Notes: generated by a model not told the origin, from the sequence alone. Shown: positions 45,400-48,398, counted from the whole stretch's first letter. The stretch: 63,858 nt of DNA, filler included, from Reclinomonas americana ATCC 50394 (GCA_048213135.1; 7 parts of 3 records of this genome joined end to end with filler, not necessarily neighbours in it); one strand, 5' to 3'. Translations and numbers: made by a program.

Positions 45400-48398
45400 T
45401 TACTTCTTGCCCTTCTCCTCGAACTCGGCCTCGGTCGGGCCGCTCGAAGACGACGACGACTGCGCAAACACAAAGTGAGTTTTTCCACACACGCGCGCGA
45501 ACACATCACTTGACAGAAACGCAACAGCATTGCGGTGAATGTGCTCGCCAATCTTCATCGAAGCCGTTGTGACGGCCTCCTTGGCCTGACGGATACCCTC
45601 GATATCGTCGCGGCCGACAGCCTCGCGCAGGTTGGCAATCTCCTTGCGGAGAGCGTCAGAAATCTCCTGCGGCACCTTGCTCTTGTACTCCGACAGCGTC
45701 TTCTCCGACGAGTGCAGCAGACCCTCGGCGTCGTTCTTCAACTCGACGAGTTCCTACGCAGGCCAAAAAATGAGCAACAACAGAAACCCCAGACGCAGCC
45801 ACATTCGCATTATTATTCTTCTACAAACCCTGCGAGTGCGATCCTCGGCAGCGTGCGCCTCAGCGTCGCGAATCATGCGCTCAATCTCCGCCTCCGACAG
45901 GCCACCCTGTGGGCGCACCGACGTCTGCTGCTCCTTGCCAGTGGCCTTGTCCTTGGCCGACACGTGCACAATGCCATTAGCATCGATCTCGAAAGTCACC
46001 TCAACCTGAGGCACTCCGCGAGGCGCCGGCGGGATGCCGACCAGATCAAAGTTGGCCAGCAGCTTGTTGTCGGCAGCCATCTCACGCTCGCCCTGCAGCA
46101 CCTTGATCGACACCTGAGTCTGGTTGTCGGCGGCAGTGCTGAACGTCTGGCTGCGCTTGGTCGGCACGGTCGTGTTGCGCGGAATCAGGCGGGTGAACAC
46201 ACCGCCCAGCGTCTCAATGCCCAGCGACAGCGGCGTCACGTCCAGCAGCAGCACGTCCTTCACCTCGCCCATAAACACACCACCCTGAATGGCGGCACCC
46301 ATGGCCACGACCTCGTCCGGGTTCACACCCTACGTGTGCGCGCCACATACGTGAGAAAACAAGACAAGAAACTGCACCCGCCGCGGGGGATCACACAAAA
46401 CCTTGAACGGCTCCTTGCCAAAGAACTTGGTGACGACCTCCACGACGCGGGGCATGCGGGTCATGCCGCCGACCAGAATCACCTCGTTGATGTTCGACAG
46501 ACCGACACCGGCGTCCTTGATGGCAGCGCGGCACGGATCGACAGTCTTCTGAATCAGGCTCTCCACCAGCGACTCCAGCTTCGAGCGCGACATCTTCATG
46601 TTCAAGTGCTTCGGTCCCTGAGCGTCGGCAGTGATAAACGGCAGGTTGATCTCCGTCTGCAGGGTGGAGCTCAGCTCGATCTTGGCGCGCTCAGCCGCGT
46701 CCTTCATGCGCTGCATGGCCATCGAGTCGTTCGACAGATCAATGCCAGTCTGCGAGGACACAAGACGCGCAGGCGAGTAAGTGATCTGCGGCCAGCCACG
46801 ACTGTAAACGGGCGAGGAAACCCAACCTCCTTCTTGAACTCGTCGCACAGGTAGCGCAGGATGGTGTTGTCAAAGTCTTCGCCGCCGAGGAACGTGTCGC
46901 CGTTGGTGCTCTTCACCTCAAACACACCGTCGTTCAACTCGAGCACCGAGATATCGAAGGTGCCGCCACCGAGGTCGTACACGGCCACGGTGCGCGCCTC
47001 GCGCTTGTCCAGACCGTAGGCCAGCGCCTGTGCGAGGGAAGGAGAGAAGGTGAGTCTCGCGGCACGCCAACGAGAAGAGAGAGGATGATGAATACAAACG
47101 CAACGGCAGCAGTCGGCTCGTTAATCACACGCATGACATCCAGACCGGCAATGCGTCCAGCGTCCTTGGTGGCCTGGCGCTGGGGGTCGTTGAAGTACGC
47201 GGGCACGGTGATGACGGCCTTGGAGACCGGGCGGCCGAGGTACGCCTCAGCAGTCTCCTTCATCTTGGTCAGAATGAAGGAGCCGATCTGCGCCGGCGAG
47301 TACTTCTTGCCGTCGGTGGTGGCGACCCAGGCATCGTTGCTGTTGTCGGCCTTGACAATCTTGAATGGCACCATCTTGGACTCCTTCTGTGTCTGCGGAT
47401 CGTTGAAGGCGCGGCCAATCAGACTGCATGGCGACAACACAAAAAAAAAACGTGGGTTATTGAGTGCAGAGGGAATAAGAGTGTATGTGACTGCTCACGC
47501 ACCGCTTGGTGGCGTAGAACGTGTTGGCACCATTGGTGACCGCCTGGCGCTTCGCCGGCTGGCCCACCAGACGCTGTCCGTCGTCCTATTCGAGTGGCAA
47601 CAAGGCGAAATGAGCCGACGACTGACGCGAGGGAAGAGAGGCACGACACGCAACAGTAAAGGCGACAATGGACGGCGTGGTGCGTGCGCCTTCCGAGTTC
47701 TCCAGCACCTTGGGCTGACCACCCTCCATCAGCGCCACACAGCTGTTCGTCGTCTGCACGCGAGATAAGAAGCTCACAATTAGACTCGCAAAAGGGGAAA
47801 AAGATTCGCATCAGCATCCTCAATGCAAAAAACGCACTCTGTGTGGGGAAGGAAGAGTGAGCTTCTGTCGTCAGAAGACAGATAGAGAAACACACACACA
47901 CACTCACCCCAAATCGATTCCAATGACGACATCGGCCTTACTGTAGACACACGCACACACAGCGGAAGTAAGAGGACATGTCGCACAAAACTCCGCGTGC
48001 TCAACTGCGCGGAGACACCACAGACGAAGACGGAGCTCACCTGGCAAACGACTGTAGATGGCGATGATGATGATGGGCACAACACAGACAAGGAGAGGAA
48101 AAGCAGTCAGTCAAGATGCACACGTCAGCATCACACATACACAAAACGACAGATTGTCAGGCGGAGAGCGCGAAAGACAACAACAACAACAGAGAGAGCG
48201 AGCGCATCAGACTGGCAAGGCGAGGAGAGGGGAGGCAGAGGAGCGACATGCACATGCGCATGCGCAAACACACACTAATGTAAACACACAGAGAGAGAGA
48301 GAGAGAGAATGCAACGCAACTCGCGCCGCAGCCTGGCGCAACAACGGCAGTGACGACGACGACGACGCGCCAACAAAGCGACGCGCGGCAAGCAACAT
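45400..48398 (-). CDS. HSPA9: Mitochondrial Hsp70 (DnaK-type)
   Basis: Arg/Ser-rich presequence [15 protein letters not shown]. Motifs [93 protein letters not shown] at 45400-45402. Confidence 0.96.

Follow-up and report, generated by a model that had tools for sequence, protein, structure and literature searches.

A probable one-base exon in the phosphate-1 glycine codon of a mitochondrial-type Hsp70 gene of Reclinomonas americana

The Hsp70 gene and the junction at Gly codon 41

The DNA analyzed here, referred to as the window, comprises 63,858 nucleotides (nt), filler included, of Reclinomonas americana ATCC 50394 (GCA_048213135.1), and carries on its minus strand a 12-exon gene predicted to encode a mitochondrial-type Hsp70 (Table 1). 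In this gene, glycine codon 41 of the phosphate-1 loop probably requires a one-base exon, the A at 47838 (A47838), placed between two short GT-AG introns. The coordinate model of the gene forms a single open frame, and all 11 of its introns are of the GT-AG type. Pfam HSP70 matches with E-values from 8e-75 to 6e-7 were found in five exons and jointly cover profile positions 8 to 597, the full-length domain. Among solved structures, the 99-nt exon matched human mitochondrial Stress-70 best (from its TTNS), followed by DnaK and then cytosolic Hsc70. The top protein-database homologues of the conserved exon of 167 amino acids were of the DnaK type with approximately 82% identity, and a single match, with 49% identity, was found for the variable C-terminal exon. 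These similarities place the product among mitochondrial-type Hsp70s of the DnaK/HSPA9/Ssc1 group, and the gene is taken to be a nuclear one.

The N-terminus of the model is rich in Arg, Ser, and Ala and contains no acidic residues; it is read from exon 1 and the 11-nt exon, both of which lie outside the transcript support described below. The 11-nt exon was proposed because the presequence exon must join the 33-nt exon in frame. If it is real, exons of 11, 33, and 1 nt follow in succession behind the first intron at the 5′ end of the gene. The intron lengths are, in order, 269, 100, 69, 84, 69, 79, 77, 77, 72, 75, and 66 nt. The donor heptamer GTTGCGT is common to 4 of the 11 introns (donors at 48320, 47654, 47104, and 45525, minus strand), and three more donors read GTTGGG, GTTTTG, or GTTTGT. 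These donors form a second class beside GTGAGT/GTGCGT, unusual for a 5′ splice-site consensus and a possible taxonomic clue.

Table 1. Features of the Hsp70 gene and of its one-base junction, with positions in the window.
Feature	Position	Strand	Description	Basis
Predicted mitochondrial-type Hsp70 (DnaK-like) gene, complete	45400..48398	-	12 exons; coding sequence of 1962 nt, 653 codons plus stop	Coordinate model, Pfam, relative's contigs
Putative presequence exon (exon 1)	48321..48398	-		Coordinate model
Probable 11-nt exon	48041..48051	-	TCGTTTGCCAG	Frame logic only; outside relative's contigs
33-nt exon	47908..47940	-	Encodes (S) + 11 residues; closes with GG, the first two bases of Gly codon 41	Sequence, coordinate model; alignment of an X1 contig begins at 47908 and runs upward
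Upstream half-intron, 69 nt	47839..47907	-	Donor GTGAGT, CTCAC branch-like motif, pyrimidine tract, acceptor CAG 47841-47839	Acceptor score 9.9 bits
Proposed one-base exon A	47838	-	Completes Gly codon 41 (GGA) as its third base, within GIDLG/TT	Sequence, frame, relative's contig, site scores
Downstream half-intron, 84 nt	47754..47837	-	Donor GTGCGT, CTAAT branch-like motif, acceptor CAG 47756-47754	Donor score 6.7 bits
99-nt exon	47655..47753	-	Encodes 33 residues	Pfam HSP70 profile positions 8-40; covered by contig of run X1

An earlier note on this DNA had described the junction, with both exon ends, the lone A, the donor behind it, the two intron lengths, and three branch-like motifs, and inspection of the minus strand confirmed every letter of that description. 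At 47908, the upstream exon closes with ...ATC GAT TTG GG, and GTGAGT (47907-47902) comes next; the downstream exon starts with ACG ACG AAC AGC at 47753 and is preceded by GTGCAG ending at 47754. These two borders are separated by 154 nt, and the flanking exons are exactly one base out of phase. Inside this stretch, a 13-nt pyrimidine tract (47857-47845) leads to CACAG ending at 47839, the lone A at 47838, and GTGCGT (47837-47832), a hexamer identical to that of the donor at 47502. The branch-like motifs are CTGAC (47874-47870) and CTCAC (47861-47857) upstream of the lone base and CTAAT (47783-47779) downstream of it, where positions 47772-47762 are pyrimidine rich. The branch-like A of CTCAC lies 20 nt from the 3′ end of the upstream half-intron.

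Splice-site scores, branch-like motifs, and half-intron lengths fit the other introns of the gene. The half-introns of 69 and 84 nt compare with 66 to 100 nt (median, 77 nt) in the other nine introns, the 269-nt first intron apart, whereas the unsplit 154-nt stretch has twice the median length. A branch-like CTVAY precedes the AG by 20 and 27 nt in the two half-introns, and by 17 to 26 nt in the five of the nine other introns that have one. A lone base thus stands between AG and GT, with normal intron signals and workable lengths on both sides.

The reading frame requires this base. Direct joining of 47908 to 47753, which the earlier note had called one base short, yielded the frameshifted GRRTAVWR* with a stop after 8 codons. 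Inclusion of A47838 completes GGA, restores GIDLG-TTNS as had been claimed, and opens the frame of 653 codons, so that exons out of phase by exactly one base are joined with no residue gained or lost. When all nine AGs in the 154 nt were tried as single acceptors, the frame was kept by two, at the cost of 6 or 10 extra residues between G and TT: the AG ending at 47773, which inserts FLSRVQ and whose existence had been pointed out before, and the AG ending at 47785. None of the alternative GT donors tried within the 154 nt worked. The phosphate-1 motif, GIDLGTTNS, was uninterrupted in 89 of 94 near-full-length homologues from the two protein searches and missing from the first 160 residues in the remaining five; an insertion between GIDLG and TTNS was found in none of the 94. 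The 99-nt exon begins at profile position 8 of Pfam HSP70, directly past GIDLG.

Transcript contigs, site statistics, and rival explanations

Contigs from one public run (X1; 0.05 of sampled words shared, labelled as RNA by a guess) were compared with the window. Because they are mostly 90 to 95% alike to it, they derive from a close relative of R. americana ATCC 50394. Six model introns are skipped exactly by these contigs (45525-45460, 45828-45754, 46401-46330, 46826-46750, 47104-47028, and 47654-47586). At two of the six joints, a few unaligned letters proved to belong to exon ends that differ synonymously (GCG to GCT, and GAC GAC GGA CAG to GAT GAT GGT CAA), which validates the same way of reading the disputed junction. 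The contigs leave uncovered 47218-47520 and everything above approximately 48025, including the intron 47502-47424, the 11-nt exon, and exon 1.

Across the disputed junction, a contig of 297 nt (depth 4.57) links 47750 to 47908 through the letters GGTT (plus strand). With a one-base exon, CGT (47751-47753) plus T (47838) is predicted, and the contig differs from this by the synonymous change ACG to ACC alone. The relative reads TTG GGA ACC ACG, with four letters at the joint versus three for the direct join, and the extra base is A. Of the mRNA predicted in the earlier note, GAT TTG GGA ACG ACG, the GGA and exactly one added A were therefore recovered in the relative, with ACC in place of the ACG that follows. 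The outcomes that had been named as contrary to the proposal, another Gly codon or insertion of FLSRVQ, were looked for in the same contig and neither was seen; a GGG codon would need GGTC. The A of the relative is unlikely to be a chance match, because GGA is a minority among the 51 Gly codons of the Hsp70 gene (GGC 28, GGT 17, GGA 6 with codon 41 included, GGG 0) and A is rare at third positions (17 of 654 codons).

Of 40 listed differences between X1 and the window (28 more lie beyond the list), 37 were synonymous third-position changes, which indicates that the gene is under purifying selection, and 3 were conservative replacements. No insertions or deletions were listed anywhere in the covered exons. 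Genomic DNA of relatives was sought by a pattern scan of metagenomes (degenerate VVIGIDLG, then GGGT), and the 12 loci returned were dismissed as chance matches, with all 12 flanks unrelated to Hsp70.

The rarity of the site was estimated with matrices for donors (+1 to +9) and acceptors (-20 to -1), built from the nine other introns of the gene. On both strands of the window (122,626 non-N positions), 531 AG-N-GT sites were found, and only the one at 47838 reached both observed scores (acceptor, 9.9 bits; donor, 6.7 bits). The number of sites rose to 2 when both thresholds were relaxed by 2 bits, to 8 at 4/4 bits, and to 74 at 0/0 bits. The second-best site, at 32249 (plus strand; cctgcag/T/gttgtatg), is flanked by coding-looking frames that a one-base exon fails to restore and was rejected as a chance occurrence. 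As the window overall is less intron-like than an intron, a second null was added, consisting of 200,000 random 154-nt sequences from a first-order model of the introns of the gene. An equally good site was present anywhere in 166 of these, and in 61 with neither half shorter than 55 nt; relaxing the thresholds raised these numbers to 1,257 and 501, respectively. Matrices from nine introns of a single gene make these figures rough, and they are meaningful as an order of magnitude, between 1 in 400 and 1 in 3,000. The AG-A-GT at 47838 exceeds chance expectation.

Several points weigh against the one-base exon. The transcript evidence comes from the relative and not from R. americana itself, and at the junction it consists of a single low-depth contig of a run labelled RNA by guess. 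Should X1 derive from the DNA of a relative that lacks these introns, its contig would reveal the required base and not splicing, and conservation of the one-base exon itself in the relative is no more than a possibility. One further joint of X1, from 45908 to 46156 (contig depth 31.7), skips 247 nt inside the 501-nt exon, has GT..CG ends, and fits no model intron; it probably stems from a different Hsp70 homologue in the run, aligned in part. The matrices were trained on just nine introns of the same gene, within whose self-scores the internal donor is mid-range (6.7 versus 0.9 to 11.5 bits) and the acceptor is near the low end (9.9 versus 8.3 to 15.3 bits). Finally, the draft from which the window comes is gapped (21 N runs), which limits confidence in its per-base accuracy.

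The last point bears on an assembly error, which we consider improbable. Here the genome would have an extra border base (e.g., ...GGA/GTGAGT or CAG/AACG), the 154 nt would be one intron, and the internal AG-A-GT would be coincidental. The A of the relative suits such an error equally well as a one-base exon. The coincidence that it needs, however, occurred in only 61 (strict) to 501 (relaxed) of the 200,000 null sequences and at one of the 531 sites in the window; the intron would have twice the median length, and the deletion would have to sit exactly on a splice border in a gene with no other insertion or deletion listed versus the relative in its covered coding sequence. The frequency of one-base exons in an intron-dense genome with short introns (13 in Coprinopsis, PMC12230235) is similar to plausible draft error rates, so that the priors of the two explanations are comparable and the site statistics decide between them.

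The same G stands at both borders, so removal of a single 153-nt intron with non-canonical ends (GT..CA, 47907-47755, or equivalently TG..AG, 47906-47754) would also restore frame and motif. This reading is very unlikely: all 11 model introns are GT-AG, the resulting GGG codon is used in none of the 51 Gly positions, the contig of the relative has A and not G (GGTT, not GGTC), and the strong internal acceptor-donor pair would be left unexplained. A U12-type intron was rejected as well, the donors being GTGAGT and GTGCGT and not ATATCC or GTATCC. Slightly less likely still is the use of an upstream acceptor that adds 6 or 10 residues to the phosphate-1 loop, or a decaying pseudogene. Among canonical single-intron solutions, only the AGs ending at 47773 and 47785 preserve the frame, but no such insertion exists among the 94 homologues or in the contig of the relative, and a pseudogene is at odds with an otherwise intact frame of 653 codons and with the 37 synonymous changes among the 40 listed. 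The one-base deficit of the directly joined exons could also be made good in the transcript through insertional RNA editing, or during translation through a programmed +1 ribosomal frameshift. To our knowledge, neither is established for nuclear mRNAs of this kind; the RNA fold of the junction region is not unusual (z = 0.15), the internal splice-site pair would again be unexplained, and this reading is the least likely of all, close to negligible. The one-base exon at 47838 is the explanation strongly favored by us.

Other features of the window

A possible head-to-head neighbor of the Hsp70 gene was observed at approximately 48400-48600 (plus strand). Its first frame ends in the translational-GTPase G1 motif GHVDSGKTTL and has a weak, below-threshold Pfam match to GTP_EFTU. 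The starts of the Hsp70 gene and the GTPase-like gene are a few bases apart, with a short divergent promoter region common to both. Long arrays of repeats of approximately 110 residues (NVAPTAPTLSS..YTPPLA.NGVIGTLSSTDPNTGQTLTYTITGG) occupy approximately 49500-56700 (plus strand) and 9500-14700 (minus strand). Their Pfam matches, to Cadherin, CELSR cadherin, and Big_9, are weak and fall below threshold, and the arrays are probably parts of very large, repetitive proteins with a surface or adhesion role.

N runs of 44 nt occur in pairs 12 bases apart, often beside (GT)n (18952-19051, 26029-26128, 40201-40300, 49199-49298, 56994-57093, and 59687-59786), and sized gaps of 817 and 861 N are also present. 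These runs and gaps mark the window as a gapped or masked draft and limit claims of per-base accuracy. No matches were obtained in Rfam and tRNA scans of the window.

Splicing order and known one-base exons

In the proposed structure, Gly codon 41 would be split three ways, with GG closing the 33-nt exon, A47838 standing alone as an exon, and ACG opening the exon that follows. Each half-intron possesses a separate set of signals (donor, branch-like motif, pyrimidine tract, and acceptor) and would be recognized singly through intron definition, which is presumed because the introns are 66 to 100 nt long and splice sites would be paired across them. Because one base cannot hold acceptor and donor factors simultaneously, the two introns would be removed successively, in an ordered or recursive manner. 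Removal of either intron first would leave a usable site for the other, namely, GGA/GTGCGT, or CACAG/A followed by ACG. Only the doubly spliced mRNA would yield protein, because skipping of the A leads to the stop 8 codons downstream.

The branch region of the upstream half-intron (47866-47857; AGAAGCTCAC) was found to be perfectly complementary over 10 nt to positions 47777-47768 of the downstream half-intron (minus strand), with a BLAST E-value of 0.004 in a small comparison. The downstream partner includes the alternative acceptor GAG, and the match is partly due to CTCAC being the complement of GTGAG. Such pairing might influence the splicing order. The half-introns themselves are not alike, and their only matches in an introner and repeat comparison were to a (GT)n microsatellite; an origin from mobile introns (introners), for which no repeat copies spoke, was rejected.

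At the ratchet points of long Drosophila and vertebrate introns, a strong acceptor abuts a donor (AG/GT), the intron is removed stepwise, and nothing is retained. The Hsp70 site differs in that one base is kept instead of none and in that the introns measure 69 and 84 nt instead of tens of kilobases. A zero-length recursive splice site was thus rejected for 47838, where one base stands between AG and GT, is needed, and is present in the mRNA of the relative.

In Arabidopsis thaliana APC11, the constitutive one-base exon A333 lies within a formerly annotated single intron; sequencing of cDNA and resequencing of the genomic DNA, together with mutated minigenes, provided the proof (Guo and Liu 2015, PMC4674806). 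Its authors argue in their Discussion for intron definition with successive removal of two introns and cite ratchet-point recursive splicing as a model (PMC4674806). The Hsp70 exon resembles A333 in being an A, flanked by AG and GT and needed for the frame. In contrast to APC11, the Hsp70 case is based on a contig of a relative and on statistics, the gene and lineage are different, and the base divides its interval into 69 and 84 nt, whereas the APC11 exon lies 333 nt into an interval of 422 nt.

The one-nucleotide exon of Fusarium CYP621A is located within a Gly codon of the conserved PKG motif (Nelson and Syed 2026, PMC12940212), and the Hsp70 exon likewise falls in a Gly codon of a highly conserved motif. 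The Fusarium exon was inferred from out-of-phase exons flanking an apparent intron whose length exceeds twice the median, was confirmed by public reads, and is conserved in at least 20 genomes (PMC12940212). There, the exon supplies the middle codon base, G (AG-G-GT), whereas in Hsp70 it supplies a fully degenerate third base, A. The long-read annotation of Coprinopsis cinerea, an intron-dense genome with short introns, contains 13 one-nt, 57 two-nt, and 27 three-nt exons (PMC12230235), which shows that ultra-short exons recur at a low frequency. This is a genome-wide catalogue of a mushroom, with no Hsp70 case in the passages covered, in contrast to the single gene treated here. A single-base-pair exon needed for the frame of an essential gene was also described in placozoan mitochondrial cox1 (PMC5436844); organellar introns and trans-splicing are involved there, whereas the Hsp70 introns are spliceosomal.

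Among the one-base exons returned by the literature searches, none was in an Hsp70 gene, nor outside plants and fungi except for the organellar placozoan cox1, and the supplements of the Fusarium and Coprinopsis papers may add more. The Hsp70 one-base exon is a further example of a very rare known gene structure and not a new mechanism.

A more far-reaching combination of these elements appears unlikely as a whole. It would hold that the one-base exon is old and conserved in at least two species differing at many synonymous sites, that it belongs to a series of ultra-short exons (11, 33, and 1 nt), that the spliceosome of this lineage routinely handles exons below the footprint of its factors, and that the order of removal is perhaps set by RNA pairing. 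If this were true, the Hsp70 gene would be a compact natural model of obligatorily ordered splicing.

Exons of one base show that splice sites can be recognized with essentially no exon between them. The Hsp70 case stands out in affecting the most conserved loop, phosphate-1, of an essential universal chaperone, between very small introns; at this position missplicing would be lethal, so that efficient splicing is required. Introns of 69 and 84 nt would allow a very small test construct for the order of splicing. With automatic gene finders or spliced aligners, such a gene would come out broken or frameshifted, and where an apparent one-base frameshift coincides with a double-length intron in a conserved motif, an AG-N-GT should be considered before a pseudogene or an assembly error is assumed.

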